64,000 nt of DNA from Clostridia bacterium (GCA_017517745.1 JAFWYJ010000040.1:84203-148202), one strand, 5' to 3'; shown: positions 2,227 to 63,469, counted from the first letter of the stretch. Notes: generated by a model not told the origin, from the sequence alone. Made by a program: numbers and translations.

Positions 2227-2970
2227 ATGACGCGTGGAATATCGCCGTACCGATACCGCGAGGGCTTGAAGGACGGACTTCCCATCGGCCTTGGATACCT
2301 GTCGGTGTCCTTTGGATTTGGTATCACGGCAGTCGGCGAGGGCTTGCGGATTCTGGAGGCGCTTTTGATCTCCATGACCAATCTGACCTCGGCGGGTCAG
2401 GTTGCGGGTGTGACCGTCATCGTTGCGGCGGGAACACTCTTGGAGATGATGTTGACACAGCTCGTCATCAATCTGCGTTATTCGCTGATGGGCATCACGC
2501 TCACACAGCGTCTGGACGCGCGCTGTACCACACCGCGGCGCATGCTGATGGCTTTTGGCATGACCGATGAGATCTTTGCCATGGCGGTCTCCAAACCGCA
2601 TTCCGTGGGACCGACCTATTTTTACGGTCTGATGACGCTTCCGTACATCGGCTGGGCGGGCGGAACGCTCCTCGGCGCGATTGCCGGCCAGCTTTTGCCG
2701 TCCGATCTTCGAAGCGCGATGGGCATTATGATCTACGCCATGTTCATCGCCATCATTCTGCCTCCCATGAAGCAGGATCGAGGCGTTCTGTTTGTGGTTC
2801 TCTTGGCGGCGGCACTCTCCTGCGCGGTTTATTTCCTGCCGTTTTTGCAATGGATCTCCGAGGGCTTTGCCATCATTCTTTGCGCGCTTGTCTCTGCTGT
2901 CGTCATGGCGATCGTCAAGCCGATCGACGACGAGGATGATGACGGCGAAGAGGAAGGAGGCGCGACGTGA
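2227..2970 (+). CDS. azlC: AzlC family branched-chain amino acid transport protein
   Basis: ORF 2209..2970. ATG 2227 is preceded by AAGGGGG. Polytopic membrane protein with GLGYLSVSFGFG and TNLTSAGQ motifs typical of AzlC. Paired with azlD. Confidence 0.85.
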   Translation: MTRGISPYRYREGLKDGLPIGLGYLSVSFGFGITAVGEGLRILEALLISMTNLTSAGQVAGVTVIVAAGTLLEMMLTQLVINLRYSLMGITLTQRLDARCTTPRRMLMAFGMTDEIFAMAVSKPHSVGPTYFYGLMTLPYIGWAGGTLLGAIAGQLLPSDLRSAMGIMIYAMFIAIILPPMKQDRGVLFVVLLAAALSCAVYFLPFLQWISEGFAIILCALVSAVVMAIVKPIDDEDDDGEEEGGAT

Positions 2971-3275
2971 GAGCAACGATTTTGATCTATATCGCAGTCA
3001 TGGCGCTGACCACCTATCTGATCCGCATGATCCCTCTGACCGCCTTCCGTCGGCGCATTACCTCCCGCTTTGCGCGCAGTTTCTTTCATTATATTCCTTA
3101 TGCCGTTTTGGCGGCAATGACCTTTCCCGCGATCTTCTATTCCACCGGAAGCTTTCTCTCGGCAACGGTCGGACTCGCCGTGGCAATGCTGTTGGCATTT
3201 CGCGGTGCGTCTCTCATCATCGTTTCTGTCACCGCGTCCGTTGTGGCTTTTCTCATCGGCATTTTGCCTTTTTGA
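2967..3275 (+). CDS. azlD: AzlD family branched-chain amino acid transport protein
   Basis: 102-aa hydrophobic protein. GTGA overlap with azlC stop. Typical azlCD pairing. Confidence 0.8.
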   Translation: MRATILIYIAVMALTTYLIRMIPLTAFRRRITSRFARSFFHYIPYAVLAAMTFPAIFYSTGSFLSATVGLAVAMLLAFRGASLIIVSVTASVVAFLIGILPF

Positions 3276-3311
3276 GGATTGTTCTGCACGGCTTGTTCTA
3301 AATTGAAGAAA

Positions 3312-3351
3312 CCTCCCATATAGTTTACCAACAAGCTATATGGGAGGTTTT
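3312..3351 (+). terminator. 12-bp perfect hairpin: azlD terminator that also sequesters the spoIVA RBS
   Basis: CCTCCCATATAG 3312-3323 / CTATATGGGAGG 3336-3347, then TTTTA. The right arm contains the GGGAGG RBS of spoIVA (ATG 3355). Confidence 0.7.
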
Positions 3352-3354
3352 ATC

Positions 3355-4833
3355 ATGCCGGAGCATTCAATTTACAAGGACATCGCCGAGCGGACAGGCG
3401 GGGATATTTACGTTGGAGTGGTGGGGCCGGTCCGCAGCGGAAAATCCACCTTTATCAAAAGATTTATGGAATCGGTCGTGCTTCCGAACATCAGCGAGGG
3501 CTATTCCCGTGACCGCGCACGTGACGAGCTTCCGCAATCTGCGGCAGGAAAGACCGTGATGACCACCGAGCCAAAATTCATTCCCGAGGAGGCGATTCCC
3601 GTCGTGCTGGATCACAACGCGCAGATGCGCGTGCGAATGATCGACTGCGTGGGCTATCTGATCCCCGAAGCGATGGGGGCGATCGAGAACGGTCAGCCTC
3701 GCATGGTGCGCACGCCGTGGCGTGAAGAACCGATGCCGTTCGTGGAGGCTGCGGAGATGGGGACGCACAAGGTCATCACCGAGCATTCCACCATCGGAAT
3801 GCTGGTCACCACGGACGGAACGATCGGAGAAATCCCGAGAGAGTCCTACGTCGAGGCGGAGGAGCGTATCGTGCGCGAGCTTCGTGAGATCGGCAAGCCC
3901 TTTGCCGTGATCCTCAATTCGGCACAGCCCGCAAGCGAATCCGCGCGTGCGCTGGCGTATGAATTGGAGGAAAAATACGGCGTTCCGGTGGCTCTTGTGA
4001 GCTGTTTGGATCTGGATGCCGAGGATATCCGTCACATTTTGGGGTTGGTTTTGGAGGAGTTTCCCGTGGCAGAGATCAGCGTTCGCATGCCCGAATGGAT
4101 GAATGCACTCGACGAGAGCCACCGCATCCGCTCCTCGGTGCAGGCATCCTTGCGCAGATGCGCCGATAAGGTACACAAGGTGGGAGACGTCAGAGACGCC
4201 TTTGCGGGGATGGCGGAAAACGAATACGTTTTGGCAATCAACACCGATCTGTTGGATCTCGGAACGGGGTGCGCCACCATGACGCTTTCGATGCAGGATG
4301 GGCTCTATTACACGGTTGTCAGTGAGCTGACGGGCTTTGAGATTGCGGGTGAACGTGAGCTGATCGCCAAAATGCGCGAGCTTGCCGCGATCAAGGAAAA
4401 ATATGACAAGGTTTCCGAGGCGTTGGAGCAGGTCAACGAGTGCGGTTACGGCATCGTGATGCCCGACGTCGAGGACCTGCGCCTGGAGGAGCCTCGCATC
4501 GTCAAACAGGCGGGCGGTTACGGCGTCAAGCTGCGCGCGTCGGCACAGTCGGTGCACATGATCCGCGCCAACATCGAAACCGAGATCAATCCCATCGTCG
4601 GCACCGAGCAGCAATCCGAGGATCTCGTGCGCTATATGCTGCGTGAATTTGAGGAGGATCCCAAGAGCATTTGGGCATCCAATCTGTTTGGAAAATCGCT
4701 CTATGCGCTGGTCAACGAGGGGCTTCATACCAAGCTTGCGCATATGCCCGATGAGTCTCGTCTCAAGCTCTCCGAAACGCTTGAGCGCATCATCAACGAG
4801 GGCAGCAACGGCTTGATCTGTATTCTATTGTAA
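3355..4833 (+). CDS. spoIVA: Stage IV sporulation protein A (spore coat morphogenetic ATPase)
   Basis: MPEHSIYKDIAERTGGDIYVGVVGPVRSGKSTFIKRFM... Walker A motif and the highly conserved SpoIVA N-terminus. About 492 aa. Confidence 0.95.
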   Translation: MPEHSIYKDIAERTGGDIYVGVVGPVRSGKSTFIKRFMESVVLPNISEGYSRDRARDELPQSAAGKTVMTTEPKFIPEEAIPVVLDHNAQMRVRMIDCVGYLIPEAMGAIENGQPRMVRTPWREEPMPFVEAAEMGTHKVITEHSTIGMLVTTDGTIGEIPRESYVEAEERIVRELREIGKPFAVILNSAQPASESARALAYELEEKYGVPVALVSCLDLDAEDIRHILGLVLEEFPVAEISVRMPEWMNALDESHRIRSSVQASLRRCADKVHKVGDVRDAFAGMAENEYVLAINTDLLDLGTGCATMTLSMQDGLYYTVVSELTGFEIAGERELIAKMRELAAIKEKYDKVSEALEQVNECGYGIVMPDVEDLRLEEPRIVKQAGGYGVKLRASAQSVHMIRANIETEINPIVGTEQQSEDLVRYMLREFEEDPKSIWASNLFGKSLYALVNEGLHTKLAHMPDESRLKLSETLERIINEGSNGLICILL

Positions 4834-15971: not shown

Positions 15972-16053
15972 GATCATTCCGCCTTGCGGAACGCGTTGCT
16001 CTAAAAACGAAAGCACCTCTTTCTGCGTACCTGCCATAGAGCAGGTACGCAAC

Positions 16054-16229
16054 GAAATTTGCCCTTCCGGGCAAGTGAAATCGCCTCGCGGTGAAATATT
16101 TGCTCCGCAAATGTGAAATATCCGCTTGCGCGGACGTGGGCAAATTTCATTTCACATCGAGCATGGCGAGATATTTCACAATGTGCGGTAGCACATTATT
16201 TCACGTTTTGCAAAAGCAAAACATTTCAC
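16054..16229. repeat. Array of three GTGAAAT and four ATTTCAC heptamers with an 11-bp inverted repeat
   Basis: GTGAAAT at 16075, 16091, 16113. ATTTCAC at 16149, 16173, 16198, 16223 (24-25 bp spacing). GAAATTTGCCC 16054-16064 / GGGCAAATTTC 16138-16148. Confidence 0.8.
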
Positions 16230-57877: not shown

Positions 57878-60874
57878 TTAAAGTGGGCTTTTTCCATCGA
57901 TACAGATGACCATGGTGGCGGGAATATGATAATTCCAATCGAATTCTTTTTCAATTGCATCCCATTCTTCCACGGTTCCGTCAAAACCAATGGCTTTCAG
58001 ATTGATGCATTCACGGAAAGCATCGTAGCGGATGATTGTCACGCTAACGGGGATCGTAACGCTTTTCAAGTTTGTGCATTTAAAAAACGTGTGCCACTCG
58101 ATGATCGTCACTTGATTGGGAATCATGATGTCCGTCAGACTCGTGCAATTCGAGAAAGCAGACTCCCCAATGCTTGTCACGGTATTGGGAAGCGTGATGC
58201 TCGTCAAGCTCGAGCAACCGGAGAATGCCGAATTGCCGATGCTCGTCACGCTATTGGGAATCATGACGTCCGTCAGACTCGTGCAGTGCGAGAATGCAGA
58301 ATTGCCAATGCTTGTCACGGTATTGGGAAGCGTGATGCTCTCCAAATTCATGCAACCGTAGAATGCCCCGGAACCAATGCTCGTCACACTGTTGGAAATC
58401 GTAATGTTTTCCAGATTCTTGCAACCGTAGAACGTCTGGGAGGCAATGCTTGTCACATTGCTCGGAATCGCGATGCTTGCAAGACTTGCGCAACCCGTGA
58501 ACGCACACTGGCCAATGTTCGTCACACTGTCGGGAATGGTGATGCTTGCCAGAACTGCGCAACCTGCGAAAGCATACTGGTCAATGTTCGTCACACTGTC
58601 GGGAATTGTGATGTTGGCCAGGCTTGCGCAATCAGAGAACGCCGAATTGCCAATATTTGTCACACCGGTGGGAATGATGACCTTCGTGATATTGCTACAA
58701 CCGTAAAAGGCATAGTTGTTGATCTGTTGAACACCGGCGGGGATTTCGAGCTCGGTTGCAATTGTGTTGTTCACGTGAAGCGTGGCGCCATATCGCATCG
58801 GATTGGACTCGGCGTTGTCGAACGAAATGCCACACCAAGCCTCAAGATCGGTCACGTAAACGTTGGAGAGACTTTGACAAGCCAGGAATGCATTATCGCC
58901 AATGCTCGCGACGCTGTCGGGAATTGTGATGTCGGCCAGGCTTGGGCAATAGGAGAACGCCGAATTGCCAATGCTCGTGATGTTGGCAGGGATCGTGATG
59001 CTCGTCAAGCTCGAGCAACCGGAGAATGTCGAATTACCGATGCTCGTGACGCTGTTGGAGATCGTGATGCTCGTCAAGCTCGAGCAACCGGAGAATGTCG
59101 AATTGCCGATGCTCGTGACGCTGTTGGGGATCGTGATGCTCGTCAAGCTCGAGCAATCGGAGAATGCCGAATTGCCGATGCTCGTGACACTGCCGGGGAT
59201 CGTGATGCTTTCCAGGTTATGGCAATCCAAAAAAGCTTGATCATGGATACTCGTCACGCTACCGTCCGCGGGAATGACACTGTTTTTGATTCCAAAAATC
59301 AAGGCTTTGTCGGCTGTTTCGATCAAGCAGTTGCCTTGGCTGTGATAGATTGTATTCTCGGGCGCGACGGCAATATTTTCAAGGTTGAAGCAACCGAGGA
59401 AGGCGGAATCTCCAATGCTTATTACATTTTTGGGGATCGTGAGGCTTGTCAAACCCAAGCAATGGTCAAATGCAGACTCCCCGATTTGGATCACGCTGTC
59501 GGGAATTGCGATTTCCGTCAGTTTTACACAGTCATAGAAGGTTTTCTTCCCGATGCTCGCGATGCCGTCGGGGATCGTGATGTTTTTCAAAGATACACAA
59601 CCGGAAAAGGCAAGATCACCGATATTTGTCACTCCGCTTGGAATGTCGATCGTTTCCAATTGTGCGCAGGAAGCAAATGCAGAACCGTGGATCAATTTGC
59701 AGGTGGATTCCAGGGTGACGTTGGTGATCAGCCGTTTGTCAAGTGCTTTGACGGCAACCAGATAGGGCAGCGTTTCACTTCCGAGATATGCAACGTTGTT
59801 CTTTTCATGATACTGCAGCTTGGAGCAATCGACGAAGGCATCCGAAAGGATCAGATTGACGTTTTCGTGGATGGTGCAGGATTCGATGTCGGCATCCTTT
59901 GCGCTGACCAACACCTTGTGCGGGTTCTCGGCGCTTCCAAGATAGTAGGCGTTTCCGTATTCCGCATACTCCAGGCTTCTACAGCCCTTGAATGCAGACT
60001 CACCAATGATTTTCAGGCTGTTGGGAAGGGTTACCTTTTTCAAGTTGCAACAGCCGGCAAACGCCTTTGGAGAAATGGAAAGTACCCCTTCCGAAAACGT
60101 GACGGAGGTGATGACGTCTGTGTTGATCGGAAGCGTGATGCCTTTGTCATAGTTTTCAATTTGTTGGCTTTTTCCAAGCTCCAACAGCGATTGCACACAC
60201 GCATAGTTTTGCGATGCCGAAAAATCGGTATATTTCGAGAGCTGACGGGATAGCCAATCGAGTTCTGTAAGGGTAATATCGTCAAAAAGCACGTAAAGAT
60301 TGGTTGCTTGCGCCAGCGGATATTGTGAAAGAAGTATATTTTTTGTAGCTTGGCTTTTCGCATTTTCAAGGCTTTTCAATTGCCAAAAAGTGAGCGTTTT
60401 CTTAAAGTAGAACTCTATCAGCTCGCCGGCTTCAAACTTCTTTTGCAACGGTTCCTTGATATATTTCAAAAAATCCGCCTCGGAGAGCACTCTTGGAACG
60501 TTGTGGTAGACGAGATCATCGGTGTCAAACCCAACAACCGCTTCTCCCTGCGGAGAGGTTGCGGGGATGGTGATGGAAAGGTCTTTTGCGTTGGCACCGA
60601 GCGTGATGCCGTCGACGAAACAGGTGCCGTTTCCGAGCGAACGGAACGAGAGGGTGTAGGTGTCGCCCGGTGTTTCCTCCTTGCCGGAATCGGCCGAGGG
60701 CGTGGATTCCGTTTCGCCGGACGGCGCGGAAGAATCCGTGGGATTTGACGGGCCGGCACTTTCTGTTGTTTCCGGAGTGCTTGACGGCACTTTTTGACAT
60801 GCGGTCAACCACGTTGTCGAACACATCGCGAGAATCAAAAGGATCGAAACCGCCGTTTTCTTGAAAGCTTTCAT
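57878..60874 (-). CDS. Surface lipoprotein with BspA-type leucine-rich repeats (~998 aa)
   Basis: Start at MKAFKKTAVSILLILAMCSTTWLTAC (lipobox LTAC), after GGAGG. S/T/P-rich linker. More than 25 units of the 23-aa pattern SLxSITIPxSVTSIGxxAFxGC. Confidence 0.85.
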   Translation of the reverse strand: MKAFKKTAVSILLILAMCSTTWLTACQKVPSSTPETTESAGPSNPTDSSAPSGETESTPSADSGKEETPGDTYTLSFRSLGNGTCFVDGITLGANAKDLSITIPATSPQGEAVVGFDTDDLVYHNVPRVLSEADFLKYIKEPLQKKFEAGELIEFYFKKTLTFWQLKSLENAKSQATKNILLSQYPLAQATNLYVLFDDITLTELDWLSRQLSKYTDFSASQNYACVQSLLELGKSQQIENYDKGITLPINTDVITSVTFSEGVLSISPKAFAGCCNLKKVTLPNSLKIIGESAFKGCRSLEYAEYGNAYYLGSAENPHKVLVSAKDADIESCTIHENVNLILSDAFVDCSKLQYHEKNNVAYLGSETLPYLVAVKALDKRLITNVTLESTCKLIHGSAFASCAQLETIDIPSGVTNIGDLAFSGCVSLKNITIPDGIASIGKKTFYDCVKLTEIAIPDSVIQIGESAFDHCLGLTSLTIPKNVISIGDSAFLGCFNLENIAVAPENTIYHSQGNCLIETADKALIFGIKNSVIPADGSVTSIHDQAFLDCHNLESITIPGSVTSIGNSAFSDCSSLTSITIPNSVTSIGNSTFSGCSSLTSITISNSVTSIGNSTFSGCSSLTSITIPANITSIGNSAFSYCPSLADITIPDSVASIGDNAFLACQSLSNVYVTDLEAWCGISFDNAESNPMRYGATLHVNNTIATELEIPAGVQQINNYAFYGCSNITKVIIPTGVTNIGNSAFSDCASLANITIPDSVTNIDQYAFAGCAVLASITIPDSVTNIGQCAFTGCASLASIAIPSNVTSIASQTFYGCKNLENITISNSVTSIGSGAFYGCMNLESITLPNTVTSIGNSAFSHCTSLTDVMIPNSVTSIGNSAFSGCSSLTSITLPNTVTSIGESAFSNCTSLTDIMIPNQVTIIEWHTFFKCTNLKSVTIPVSVTIIRYDAFRECINLKAIGFDGTVEEWDAIEKEFDWNYHIPATMVICIDGKSPL
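58991..59197. repeat. Three near-identical 69-bp tandem units inside the LRR lipoprotein gene
   Basis: GATCGTGATGCTCGTCAAGCTCGAGCAA... recurs at 58991, 59060, 59129 (period 69 bp = one 23-aa LRR unit). Confidence 0.85.
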
Positions 60875-60920
60875 GTCACTGTTCCTCCAAAAAATGTATT
60901 TTAGAATGATACTATATATC

Positions 60921-60949
60921 ATTTTATCATGGTCTTCCTGCTTTTTCAA
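60921..60949 (-). promoter_or_regulatory. Sigma-A type promoter of the LRR lipoprotein gene
   Basis: Minus strand: TTGAAA (60949-60944), 17-nt spacer, TGaTAAAAT (-10 at 60926-60921). Confidence 0.65.
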
Positions 60950-61044
60950 GAGATTTGCACCATTTTTTGGAAAAAGCTGCTGTTTGGATAGAAAAAAGCG
61001 ATGCGGGTAAGTTTTTATTCTTGTTACAAAAAACGATTTTTTTG

Positions 61045-61073
61045 TTGACATTGGAAAAAATTTGTGATATAAT
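61045..61073 (+). promoter_or_regulatory. Consensus sigma-A promoter (extended -10) driving a ~270-nt leader
   Basis: TTGACA 61045-61050, 17-nt spacer, TGaTATAAT 61065-61073. Confidence 0.75.
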
Positions 61074-61080
61074 CAAAAAT

Positions 61081-61250
61081 GCCAAACAAATTTCATAATG
61101 CCATTGTAGGGATATTTTTCTCTTTTTTCAAAGGGATAAGAATACCCTTTTTTCGGCATGCTATCTATAAATGGATTTTGGTAAAATTGCAAATTCCATC
61201 AAGTGGATAGTATGGCGAAATATCCGTATGTGGCTTGAAATTTGTTTGGC
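61081..61250 (+). repeat. 170-nt segment bounded by a perfect 15-nt inverted repeat (candidate invertible element, RNA P1 helix or MITE)
   Basis: GCCAAACAAATTTCA 61081-61095 / TGAAATTTGTTTGGC 61236-61250. Inner helices ATGCC/GGCAT. AAAGGG-N9-CCCTTTTTT hairpin at 61130-61153. Confidence 0.7.
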
Positions 61251-61274
61251 GACAATCGGAGTTTGCGGTTTTCG

Positions 61275-61309
61275 GTGCGTTGACTTCGGTTGGCGCACTT
61301 TTTATTTTT
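61275..61309 (+). terminator. Strong intrinsic terminator immediately upstream of the first ORF of the operon
   Basis: GTGCGTTGAC TTCG GTTGGCGCAC (10-bp stem, UUCG loop), then TTTTTATTTTT. RBS and ATG follow at 61347. Confidence 0.8.
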
Positions 61310-61346
61310 CACCGAAAATAAATTATTTTTTAGGAGAAAAAGAAAC

Positions 61347-61667
61347 ATGCAGAAAAAAATCGATTACAAACAAATCTATCAAACGGTCTACAAAAATCTT
61401 CCAAACATTTGGCTTTTTGCGACTTTTATCATAGGAACCATTGCCAGCGTGGTGTTGGGGATTTTCTTTTTCGCAGAAGAAGAAGCGGGGGTTGGAGCCC
61501 TTCTTATTATTTTCGGTATTTTGATATCTTTGGTTTTGGCATTCATAGACCGTTGGATTGTTTCCGTTGTGATCTCTCAAAAGGTCGTTGTCGCCGATGC
61601 GTTGCTTGAAATGAACGGTTCGGTTTCGAAGGACGTGGATTCTGACGATGAACTTCCCGAGCTGTGA
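61347..61667 (+). CDS. Small membrane protein (106 aa, two TM helices, acidic tail)
   Basis: ORF 61290..61667; start at MQKKIDYK, after AGGAG. Co-oriented with and 11 nt upstream of the LRR gene. Confidence 0.6.
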   Translation: MQKKIDYKQIYQTVYKNLPNIWLFATFIIGTIASVVLGIFFFAEEEAGVGALLIIFGILISLVLAFIDRWIVSVVISQKVVVADALLEMNGSVSKDVDSDDELPEL

Positions 61668-61678
61668 GGTAAGGCATC

Positions 61679-63469
61679 ATGAGTGAAAGATATATCAAGC
61701 TGTTTTCAAGCAAAGAAAATTTATATGCAAAAGATTCTCCCGTTGTCATCCGCGCGGGTGCGCTTTTGAAGGATAGTCAAACGGGAAAAATGATCGCGCA
61801 GTTGAAATTTCAAAGCGTTAGCGAAAAGACGATCTCCTATTTGAAGATCGCGATCAGCCAATTGGATGCCGTCAACAATCCTCTCGGAGAACCCGTTGCG
61901 TTTGAATATTTGGATCTTTCGGTGGGGTATCGAAAGGAATTTGGTTCCAAAAAGCCGCTTCCGTTGCCCAATGCATCCGCCCGCGGTTTTGTTGTCGGTG
62001 TTTCAACGGTCGGCTTTGCCGACGGTTCCGTTTGGACGTGTGACGATCCCGATTGGCAGCCGATGGTCAACGATTCCGCAGTGGCAAGGCTCATGCAGGT
62101 TGAGAGCCGCTACGAAGAAGCCCTTGCGCTTTTCCAAAGCGATCGCGTGGACGATGTGAAAAAGGCACTCGAATACTTCACCGAAATTCGCGACGAAAAA
62201 GACGTAACCGTCGAAATTGCGCAATGCGAGAACAAAATTCAGGAATTGCAAGAGCAGGAACGACTGGCGATAGAAACGATTCAACAGAACACCGTCAAGA
62301 GAAAAAAGATCTTGAAATGGTCTGCAATCGCAGCGGGCGTTGCCGTTCTTTTGGTGCTTGTGAGCTATTTTGTGATTTATCCGTTCATTTCGGTTAAAAA
62401 CGGAAATTATAAGGTCTACGTCAATATGTATCACGTAACGGATTATGAAATTCCCGACGGCGTGACGAGCATTGACATGTATGCATTCTCCGGTTGCGAT
62501 AGCCTTGAAAGCATCACGATTCCCGACAGTGTGACGAGCATTGGCTATTATGCATTCTGGGGGTGCACGAATCTTTCGAGCATCACGATTCCCAACAGCG
62601 TCACGAGCATTGGTGGCTATGCATTCCATTATTGCACGAGCCTTACGAGCATCACGATTCCCGACAGTGTGACGAGCATTGGCGGTGGTGCGTTCGAAGG
62701 TTGTAATAGCCTTACGAGCATCGTGATCCCCGACAGCGTTACGAGCATTGGTGGTTGGGCGTTTGAAGGTTGTAATAGCCTTGAAAGCATCACGTTGCCA
62801 TTTATCGGAAAAACTGAGAATGGGACTTCGGGCATAGATTTCAGATATATTTTCGGACCAAATTGCGATGTTCCCGCATCTCTCAAAACCGTGGTAATTA
62901 CCGGCGGTACGAGCATTGACGATTATGCGTTCTCCGATTGCGATAGCCTTGAAAGCATCAGGATTCCTGACAGTGTGACGAGCATTGGCAAGAATGCATT
63001 CTCCGGCTGCGGTAGCCTTGCAAGCATCACGATTCCCAAGAGCGTCACGAGCATTGACGAGAGTGCGTTCAAAGGTTGCGATAGCCTTGAAAGCATTAGG
63101 ATTCCCGACAGTGTGACGAGCATTGGCAAGAATGCATTCTCTGGCTGCGGTAGCCTTGCAAGCATCACGATTCCCAAGAGCGTCACGAGCATTGGTGGGG
63201 GTGTATTCCACAGTTGCACGAGCCTTGCAAGCATCACGATTCCCAAGAGCGTCACGAGCATTGGCAAGAGTGCGTTCTATGGTTGCACACATTTGAAGAC
63301 CGTTTATTACACCGGCACGGCAACGGATTGGGCGAAAATTAGCATTGATTCTTCCTCCTCCGGCAACTTTTACCTCAAAAACGCCACCTGTTATTACTAC
63401 TCCGCTACTCGCCCCACCACCTCGGGCAACTATTGGCACTACGTGAACGGCGTGCCGACGAAGTGGTGA
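61679..63469 (+). CDS. Single-pass transmembrane protein: ~215-aa cytoplasmic N-domain, TM helix, extracellular BspA-type LRR domain
   Basis: No signal peptide. [26 protein letters not shown] near residue 225. About 14 LRR units ([18 protein letters not shown]). Confidence 0.8.
62939..63193. repeat. 138-bp tandem duplication (two LRR units each) inside 61679..63469
   Basis: TGCGATAGCCTTGAAAGCAT... at 62939 and again at 63077. 117 nt aligned with 3 mismatches. Confidence 0.85.

Follow-up and report, generated by a model that had tools for sequence, protein, structure and literature searches.

An intergenic segment in the chromosome of a Clostridia bacterium raises the question of how an operon for an LRR surface protein is expressed when a promoter, a perfect inverted repeat and a strong terminator all precede its first gene. 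The segment lies within a stretch of DNA 64,000 nucleotides long, the whole of which is called the window here. The window as a whole is ordinary chromosome of a spore-forming member of the Clostridia, with SpoIVA, TsaD/E and glycosidases encoded in it. An earlier note on this DNA, made from its sequence alone, had offered two readings of the segment. One was a leader of the riboswitch or attenuator kind, with P1 as its closing helix and a regulated terminator behind it, and the other was an invertible DNA switch of the cwpV/flgB type, in which a recombinase flips the DNA between the repeats.

The cassette in the window and its relatives

The components on which both readings were built were initially compared with the sequence and found to be in place (Table 1). 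The promoter, described in the note as near consensus, matched 12 of 12 consensus positions and also carried the extended TG, and the predicted transcription start, at approximately 61079 to 61081, is flush with P1. The two P1 arms form a perfect 15-nt inverted repeat with 140 nt between them, exactly as had been claimed. This repeat is the sole copy in the 64-kb window, and a search allowing up to 2 mismatches is expected to give 0.29 matches by chance. The AAAGGG...CCCTTTTTT hairpin is likewise present and corresponds to helix P3 of the family described below. The strong intrinsic terminator with its UUCG loop was also confirmed, its stem spanning 61274 to 61299 with 11 pairs, so that a GC-rich hairpin directly precedes the U-run TTTTTATTTTT. 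The family, on the other hand, supports a structure without the nested helix that the note had drawn between ATGCC (61098-102) and GGCAT (61155-59): in it, P2 joins GCCAU (61100-04) to 61230-34, and GGCAU sits at the base of P4. When 61079 to 61346 was folded as RNA, the plus strand gave -94.7 kcal/mol (z = -8.3) and the opposite strand gave -65.3 kcal/mol (z = -5.5). The region from 61045 to 61346 is a self-contained cassette of promoter, leader and terminator.

Table 1 Positions of the leader features and of the operon genes in the window
Feature	Position	Strand	Details
σA-type promoter	61045-61073	+	-35 TTGACA 61045-61050, 17-nt spacer, extended -10 TGaTATAAT 61065-73
P1, 5' strand	61081-61095	+	GCCAAACAAAUUUCA; pairs with 61236-61250
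P2, 5' strand	61100-61116	+	pairs with 61219-61234
P3 hairpin	61130-61153	+	AAAGGG / CCCUUU, then conserved U-run in three-way junction
P4, long arm	61153-61218	+	tip 61171-61199
P4 tip	61173-81, 61182-88, 61189-97	+	5' strand GGAUUUUGG, A-rich loop, 3' strand GCAAAUUCC
3' strands of P2 and P1	61219-61250	+	P2 61219-34, P1 61236-50
Linker	61251-61273	+	GACAAUCGGAGUUUGCGGUUUUC; proposed switching strand
Intrinsic terminator	61274-61310	+	11-bp stem 61274-99, UUCG loop, U-run 61300-10
RBS and first gene	61333-61667	+	RBS AGGAG 61333-37; 106-aa two-TM protein, ATG 61347
Second operon gene	61679-63469	+	596-aa BspA-type LRR_5 protein

The exact 20-mer GGCGACAATCGGAGTTTGCG (61248-61267) was scanned against one genome per GTDB species and was present in at least 120 stretches of these species-representative genomes. 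Among the matches listed, all carriers were MAGs of gut or rumen Clostridia, belonging to Oscillospiraceae, Acutalibacteraceae, Christensenellaceae, Ruminococcus, "Faecalibacterium", Faecousia and Eubacterium sp. CAG:180, and the hosts of these MAGs included ruminants, rabbit, mouse and human. A stricter pattern matched at least 23 metagenome stretches, with human gut assemblies among them. An association with phages was considered and rejected, since the 20-mer was found on only 4 contigs of IMG/VR.

The members share one unit. Its 5' part consists of the extended -10 promoter, a P1 helix of the GCCAAACAAA type, a variable P2 and the P3 hairpin with its U-run; a long P4 follows, tipped by GAAUUUGG-UAAAAAY-GCAAAUUCC, and then the 3' strand of P1; the 3' part comprises the linker GACAAUCGGAGUUUGCGUUUUUCGG, a terminator with a conserved CUUCGGUUG apex and a U-run. 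The -10 box was located 6 to 7 nt upstream of P1 in 105 of 105 members, 101 of which had the extended TG. The same arrangement was found upstream of homologues of the 106-aa gene on four contigs (L006 and L007 to L009), in which the linker and terminator are nearly identical to those of the window and P1 differs by compensatory changes. The protein homologues that have this leader upstream include two at 37 to 44% identity (P0005 and P0007). On contig L129, five units stand in tandem, each bearing a promoter and with no ORFs between them, and these copies within a single contig are only 73 to 81% identical. The units make up a large family of structured 5' leader RNAs of approximately 230 nt in gut and rumen Clostridia.

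The earlier note had not recognized the domain as any known riboswitch class, and scans with Rfam 15 agree. At the gathering threshold, the sole match in the whole window was Gut-1 at 16050 to 16124, and a permissive scan of 60850 to 61400 returned only chance-level matches of 25 bits or less to unrelated and mostly eukaryotic families. The Rfam 15 families that the leader fails to match include T-box, c-di-GMP-I/II, 6S and SRP. Neither the sequence nor a description of the motif was found in the literature searched, including papers on structured-RNA discovery, and it may be present but unnamed in large candidate lists. The element is a new class within a known kind of regulator, the terminator/antiterminator leader RNA.

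We also compared the genes that follow the leader. Over 122 units, the distance from the terminator U-run to the next same-strand ORF with an RBS had a median of 30 nt, with quartiles of 20 and 82 nt, a gap so short that it leaves no space for a separate promoter; approximately 8 of the 122 units had no ORF within 400 nt. The downstream proteins were heterogeneous and mostly extracytoplasmic, with a lipobox in 23 of 100 and a signal-like or TM segment in 66 of 100. Their Pfam matches were to LRR_5 (12 of 101), zinc ribbons, Flg_new, SHOCT, collagen repeats, ricin lectins and SLH, together with a few XRE HTH or TfoX-like proteins, and most proteins had no match. These genes have no common function or metabolic theme. 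As in attenuation leaders generally, a co-varying structured domain is located in the 5' UTR on the same strand as the gene. The leader probably acts in cis, setting whether transcription stops or reads through into genes for surface and secreted proteins.

Covariation of the leader fold

Alignment of all members with plain MAFFT followed by RNAalifold recovered P1 and the terminator only, the interior being too variable for an alignment made by sequence alone. A covariance model was seeded from 21 close relatives on the fold of the window, yielding an alignment of 105 members (A5). Model scores were 100 to 228 bits for the sense strand and 22 to 38 bits for the antisense strand of the same loci. 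Paired cells, the percentages of which are somewhat inflated because the alignment is fitted to the structure of the model, amounted to 90.7% in A5, compared to 71.0% after shuffling (none of 500 shuffles reached the observed value) and 32 to 44% when the strands were slid. Compensatory changes on both sides were present at 56 of the 69 pairs, and the covariation score was 0.474, compared to 0.163 for shuffled and 0.05 to 0.10 for slid alignments. P1, P2, P3, P4 and the terminator all contributed to the signal. The helices of the leader thus co-vary across 105 homologues.

The individual helices differed in how they varied. P1 (helix 1) was paired in 97.6% of cells and had compensatory changes at 10 of its 15 pairs; its outer positions co-vary freely, with UA, CG, AU and GC types all found, and the P1 arms of L006 are wholly different and still paired. 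In the inner 10 bp of P1, the sequence itself is conserved in addition to the pairing. P2 (helices 2 to 5) was 58 to 86% paired with double changes at every pair, P3 (helix 6) was 86% paired with its U-run conserved at 70% or more, and P4 (helices 7 to 10) was 74 to 94% paired through many pair types, with a conserved tip sequence. The terminator (helix 11) was 99.1% paired over the 105 members, with double changes at 5 pairs. A three-way junction followed by a terminator (shape [[][]][] or [[][]][][]) was the MFE shape in 90 of 108 members. The sense strand folded better than the antisense strand in 106 of 108 members, with a mean difference of 10.8 kcal/mol, and each domain contained approximately 5.8 G-U pairs. 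This folding asymmetry, together with the G-U pairs, points to action at the RNA level, since a repeat acting at the DNA level would lack such an asymmetry.

In the family consensus, conservation was strongest in the base of P1, the P4 loop GGUAAAAAYG, the linker and the terminator apex, and the three-way junction showed little conservation of sequence. Among unpaired positions, conservation was confined to the linker, the P4 loop UAAAAnY and the AUA that follows P1. The lengths of the P1+P2 and P4 arms, as derived from MFE structures, were also compared for a positive correlation, as fold-back docking would predict; their means were 31 and 33 nt, and the correlation obtained (r = -0.73) is probably an artefact of constant total length.

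These data bear on the explanations that place the function of the repeat in DNA. What speaks for inversion by a recombinase, which would alter terminator formation, is a perfect 15-nt inverted repeat around 140 bp between promoter and ORF, an inner 10 bp conserved in sequence across genomes in the manner of a recombinase site, and a U-run that follows P3 in one orientation only. The interior nevertheless has one orientation in all of the assemblies examined, its fold is strand specific, and the pairing extends far beyond the 15-nt arms, and for these reasons we do not retain the cwpV/flgB-type reading of the earlier note. The orientation was unchanged in four of four other assemblies of the same species. 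The tip motif was forward in 101 of 108 members and never in reverse only, with none of the 108 inverted. A pattern for the inverted allele had no match in the metagenome collection and none among 160 loci, compared to 23 metagenome stretches and 62 loci for the matching forward pattern. In addition, the strand-specific structure includes many G-U pairs, covariation continues through P2, P3 and P4 well past the arms, the arms of L006 pair in spite of being completely different, and no recombinase was found among the 25 listed of the 62 Pfam families in the window ORFs. Inversion is thus very improbable. A repressor bound at two inverted GCCAAACAAA sites at +2 and +160, with looping of the DNA between them, would fit the finding that the inner 10 bp of P1 are kept in sequence and that one site overlaps the transcription start. 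The free covariation of the outer P1 positions, the compensatory changes of both strands in divergent members (for example, GCUACACGAA / UUUGUGUAGC) and the tolerance of G-U pairs all argue against such an operator pair, which also leaves P2 to P4 and the switch pairings described below unexplained, and we give it hardly any weight.

A MITE, or another selfish repeat with terminal inverted repeats that has multiplied in the genome, was the reading that the earlier note had reserved for the case of many genomic copies. Many copies were indeed found, several per genome and each bounded by the inverted repeat, but they do not have the character of a MITE. Copies within a genome have diverged to the low identities given above, their orientation is always fixed relative to the upstream promoter and to the downstream terminator and gene, and the differences between them are compensatory within helices. 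The conserved unit also reaches outside the repeats, and a non-systematic look at the listed flanks revealed no apparent target-site duplications. Copies that have diverged while keeping one orientation and a selected structure indicate a regulatory RNA family, and a mobile repeat is accordingly a most improbable explanation.

The linker and its alternative partners

We examined the pairing potential of the linker between P1 and the terminator. Positions 61253 to 61263 (CAAUCGGAGUU) can pair with 61282 to 61292 (GACUUCGGUUG). Because this helix uses the 5' half and the apex of the terminator and leaves GCGCAC and the U-run bare, it is a candidate antiterminator. Across A5, this pairing was retained in 97.0% of cells, compared to 13 to 53% when slid. 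The segment from the linker to the U-run was folded twice, once keeping the linker unpaired and once keeping the final 6 nt of the terminator stem unpaired. The terminator and antiterminator were calculated at -14.8 and -17.0 kcal/mol, respectively, in the window, and at means of -15.8 and -16.8 kcal/mol in the family, with the antiterminator more stable in 71 of 108 members. The two helices are mutually exclusive, and the two states are nearly isoenergetic. The terminator loop and shoulder are conserved in sequence because they also form the 3' strand of the antiterminator.

A second partner of the linker was found within P4. Positions 61258 to 61266 (GGAGUUUGC) are complementary to the 3' strand of the P4 tip at 61189 to 61197, and this pairing was retained in 99.7% of cells, compared to 23 to 54% when slid. 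All substitutions in the P4 3' strand preserve pairing with the linker, and a U-A to C-G double change was present in two sequences. The pairing of the linker with the P4 tip is a predicted long-range pseudoknot. Within the P4 hairpin, helix 10 (84% paired) joins the 3' strand to the 5' strand. In lineages such as L031, both strands of the P4 hairpin have changed, and the new 3' strand fits the linker better than before.

The scan required the exact 20-mer, so that most members have the same linker as a matter of ascertainment, and for that reason divergent members were sought with nhmmer and the covariance model. The covariation of both alternative pairings rests on approximately 4 to 7 divergent members together with one-sided changes. 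Divergent linkers were found in L006 (CAAUUACGAGUCGC), L063 2372-2533 (GAAGGAAU), L129 26-162 (CAUAGAGAG) and L110 2840-3011 (GAGCUGUGCG), and in all four of these the terminator apex and the P4 3' strand are both altered to match. The P4 loop GGUAAAAAYG was retained even in the divergent-linker members. When duplexes were calculated for five linker classes in a 5x5 matrix, the cognate linker-terminator combination came first in all five rows and all five columns (-16.0 versus -7.9 kcal/mol). For the linker and the P4 3' strand, the cognate mean was -12.8 versus -7.2 kcal/mol, and the cognate combination was the best in 4 of 5 rows. Covariation supports the assignment of the linker (61251-73) as a predicted switching strand with two mutually exclusive partners.

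Other candidate interactions of these elements were considered and rejected. The mini-hairpin formed by 61251-73 in the MFE structure of the window is unconserved, most members having U where the window has G at 61268. Recognition of GGA/GGAG in the linker by CsrA, or its use as a Shine-Dalgarno-like sequence, fails as a general explanation, since the linkers of L006, L129 26-162 and L110 2840-3011 are without GGA. Pairing of the UGG of the P4 loop with a tRNA 3' end was discarded because the UGG is not conserved.

Two explanations at the RNA level dispense with a switch. The unit could be a stand-alone small RNA gene, trans-acting or serving as a protein sponge, with downstream expression arising from incidental read-through. 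Promoter and terminator are both strong in every unit, the five tandem promoter-bearing units of L129 have no intervening ORFs, approximately 8 of the 122 units have no ORF within 400 nt, and conservation is focused on the GGUAAAAAYG loop and one helix base, as in small RNAs that bind protein or RNA. Three-quarters of the units, however, are followed within 82 nt (median, 30 nt) by an RBS and start codon on the same strand, the association of leader and gene is conserved across protein identities of 37 to 44%, and the covariation of antiterminator and terminator apex implies that regulated read-through has been selected. A purely stand-alone RNA is therefore unlikely, and such a role may exist alongside the cis role, as the two functions are compatible. 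Alternatively, the leader could be static, with a 5' hairpin that stabilizes the mRNA and a terminator that is a constitutive partial stop, setting a low level of expression with no sensing. Flush 5' helices protect Firmicute mRNAs from 5'-end-dependent decay, and the flush helix of the leader is of this kind; the junction has no evident conserved ligand pocket, and the downstream genes share no function. A passive element does not need the conservation of the P4 loop that persists with divergent linkers, and a static role is also at odds with the conservation and covariation of both alternative linker pairings and with the near-equal energies of terminator and antiterminator. We consider the static leader less probable still than the stand-alone RNA.

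Proposed mechanism and comparison with known systems

The reading that we favor, and consider likely, is that the locus is a cis-acting terminator/antiterminator switch from a family of leaders of approximately 230 nt, operating through a pairing relay that is biased by a signal. Of the two readings offered by the earlier note, the riboswitch or attenuator leader closed by P1 before a regulated terminator is thus the one that is supported, as its helices co-vary and a conserved, co-varying antiterminator offers an alternative to the terminator. The transcript is predicted to start 6 to 7 nt past the extended -10, flush with P1, and its first 170 nt or so would fold as a long three-way-junction hairpin (P1-P2, P3 and P4); the flush 5' helix probably also stabilizes the mRNA. 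The proposed relay consists of four pairings among five strands, in the order P4-5' : P4-3' : linker : terminator-5' : terminator-3'. As long as the P4 tip remains a closed hairpin, the antiterminator would be formed by the free linker, and RNA polymerase would enter the operon. With the linker captured by the P4 3' strand (61189-97), the terminator at 61274-99 would form. We infer that these pairings operate as a switch and that some cellular signal biases the balance between them.

The distribution of conserved positions suggests where such a signal would be read. The biasing factor most likely recognizes the P4 loop GGUAAAAAYG, the conserved P1 base or both. A classical small-molecule pocket would be unexpected in a junction so poorly conserved. 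With conservation concentrated in the P1 base, P4 loop, linker and apex, we prefer an effector that is itself a macromolecule, or docking at the tertiary level, to a metabolite bound at the junction. The signal might reach the leader as a second messenger, through another RNA or by way of a dedicated RNA-binding protein, and it would co-regulate many genes for surface and secreted proteins. More tentatively, and with clearly less confidence than in the switch itself, we propose that these leaders are an orphan RNA class in which the five-strand relay would subject dozens of genes per genome, otherwise unrelated and encoding surface proteins, lipoproteins and adhesins, to one cellular signal. 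The tandem promoter-bearing arrays and the units with no nearby ORF suggest that the RNA may also act on its own. The terminated product of approximately 230 nt may itself act in trans, which would account for the tandem arrays.

The leader was compared to known systems with related designs. It resembles riboswitches with distal pseudoknots or kissing loops (cobalamin L5-L13 and ZTP) in its proposed design, in which P1 closes the structured sensor domain of a 5' leader acting in cis, and a long-range contact between an apical sensor element and a downstream strand decides between terminator and antiterminator. Unlike those riboswitches, it matches no Rfam 15 model and no known aptamer, its junction nucleotides are unconserved, its P1 is at least 14 to 15 bp long and conserved in sequence, and the genes that it controls have no common metabolic theme. 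With T-box leaders, it shares the presence of several copies per genome in Firmicutes and a long helical scaffold followed by competing, sequence-conserved antiterminator and terminator helices. It differs from them in having no Rfam T-box match, specifier loop or T-box 14-mer, in the lack of conservation of the UGG in its P4 loop and in downstream genes that are unrelated to amino acids or tRNA. The c-di-GMP-I/II riboswitches of Clostridia are similarly multicopy leaders that place adhesins, pili and surface proteins under one signal, and many of them are transcription-termination switches, as is proposed for the leader in the window. The leader nevertheless matches them in neither sequence nor structure and has a different architecture, and a second messenger as its ligand is pure speculation.

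Overlapping alternative helices that end in an intrinsic terminator are also found in attenuators of the trp type (1:2 / 2:3 / 3:4) and in those of PyrR, TRAP and LicT/RAT, and, as in the protein-dependent attenuators, the effector of the leader could be a protein. In contrast to the trp type, the leader has no leader peptide, as an RBS cannot precede a start at the 5' end, and the ATG at 61079 is not conserved, the first alignment columns being A/G/T-T/A/C-G. The known binding motifs of PyrR, TRAP and LicT were not recognized by eye in the leader, and its relay has an upstream element, the P4 tip, that is additional to those of the multistrand attenuators. The likeness to the cwpV and flgB loci of C. 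difficile is confined to layout: there, too, a stretch bounded by inverted repeats separates the promoter from the ORF, the gene that follows encodes a surface protein, and termination accounts for the off state. The leader was never inverted in the assemblies examined, and its pairing acts at the RNA level.

The carriers of this leader are abundant and mostly uncultured gut and rumen Clostridia, in which the regulation of the cell surface is almost unstudied. The presence of one conserved leader before BspA-type LRR, lipoprotein, collagen-like and lectin-like genes points to a shared control circuit for the surface structures that face host or phage. As a natural case of a multistrand terminator relay, the family is unusually clear, its alternative pairings being visible by covariation, and it is a well-defined orphan whose effector could be sought directly. 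A covariance model for the leader would annotate hundreds of intergenic regions that are now blank. The conserved block of approximately 45 nt also breaks metagenome assemblies.

Multiple copies of the leader on single contigs

Five leader units are arranged in tandem within positions 26-1264 of the minus strand of contig L129 (see table). Four of these are full length; a separate TGnTATACT promoter stands upstream of each of the four, and their pairwise identities range from 73 to 81%. The tandem units have no ORFs between them. A second contig, L110, carries two units, at 2840-3011 and 3277-3488, and each is followed on its 3' side by a closely similar extension (AATGCRCGGCTTCGAAAAGGTTGCTGCACATC...). 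When the first of these, the divergent unit, was folded, the extension was predicted to pair with the linker region, the strand between P1 and the terminator, and to enclose the terminator.

Many contigs have their first or last base within a leader copy (including L005, L010-L012, L019, L026, L036, L045, L067, and L068), and in one scaffold (L007 850-935) two different leader copies are joined across an N-gap. The conserved block of approximately 45 nt, consisting of the P1 3' strand, the linker, and the terminator, seems to be a repeat at which assemblies break.

Association with mobile DNA and with the downstream gene

The exact 20-mer, the conserved sequence at 61248-61267 of the window, was also present in four viral or proviral contigs from IMG/VR (L134-L137), so the cassette is occasionally carried on mobile DNA. 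The association between the leader and the 106-aa two-TM protein gene that follows it in the window is not obligatory, since the gene for a homologue with 44% identity (P0003) has its start codon approximately 60 nt downstream of a plain TTGACA...TACAAT promoter, with no leader in the 101 nt that the contig provides (L013 1-101).

The leader and its surroundings in the window

Throughout the family, P1 shows conservation of sequence, and not of pairing alone, over its inner 10 bp. Also conserved family-wide is a U-run directly 3' of the P3 hairpin (61148-61153 in the window); hairpin and U-run together have a terminator- or pause-like layout within the sensor domain.

Because a BspA-type lipoprotein gene is divergently transcribed on its other side, the window leader is flanked by two LRR surface-protein genes. 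The divergent gene has a promoter-like site of its own, and a further such site within the leader is directed towards it; the latter probably matches by chance, the sequence there being AT-rich. The same window also holds a Gut-1 RNA, an orphan sRNA not known from any source other than gut metagenomes.

Coordinates of leader units on L129 and of features in the window
Feature	Location	Strand	Remarks
Leader units	L129 26-162, 223-436, 496-706, 767-985, 1048-1264	-	tandem
Promoter-like site TTGAAA, 17 nt, TACAAT	window 61131-61103	-	10/12; inside leader
BspA-type LRR_5 lipoprotein gene	window 57878-60876	-	~1000 aa; divergently transcribed
Promoter-like site of LRR_5 lipoprotein gene	window 60949-60921	-	
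Gut-1 RNA	window 16050-16124	+	Rfam RF01706, 66.7 bits, full length
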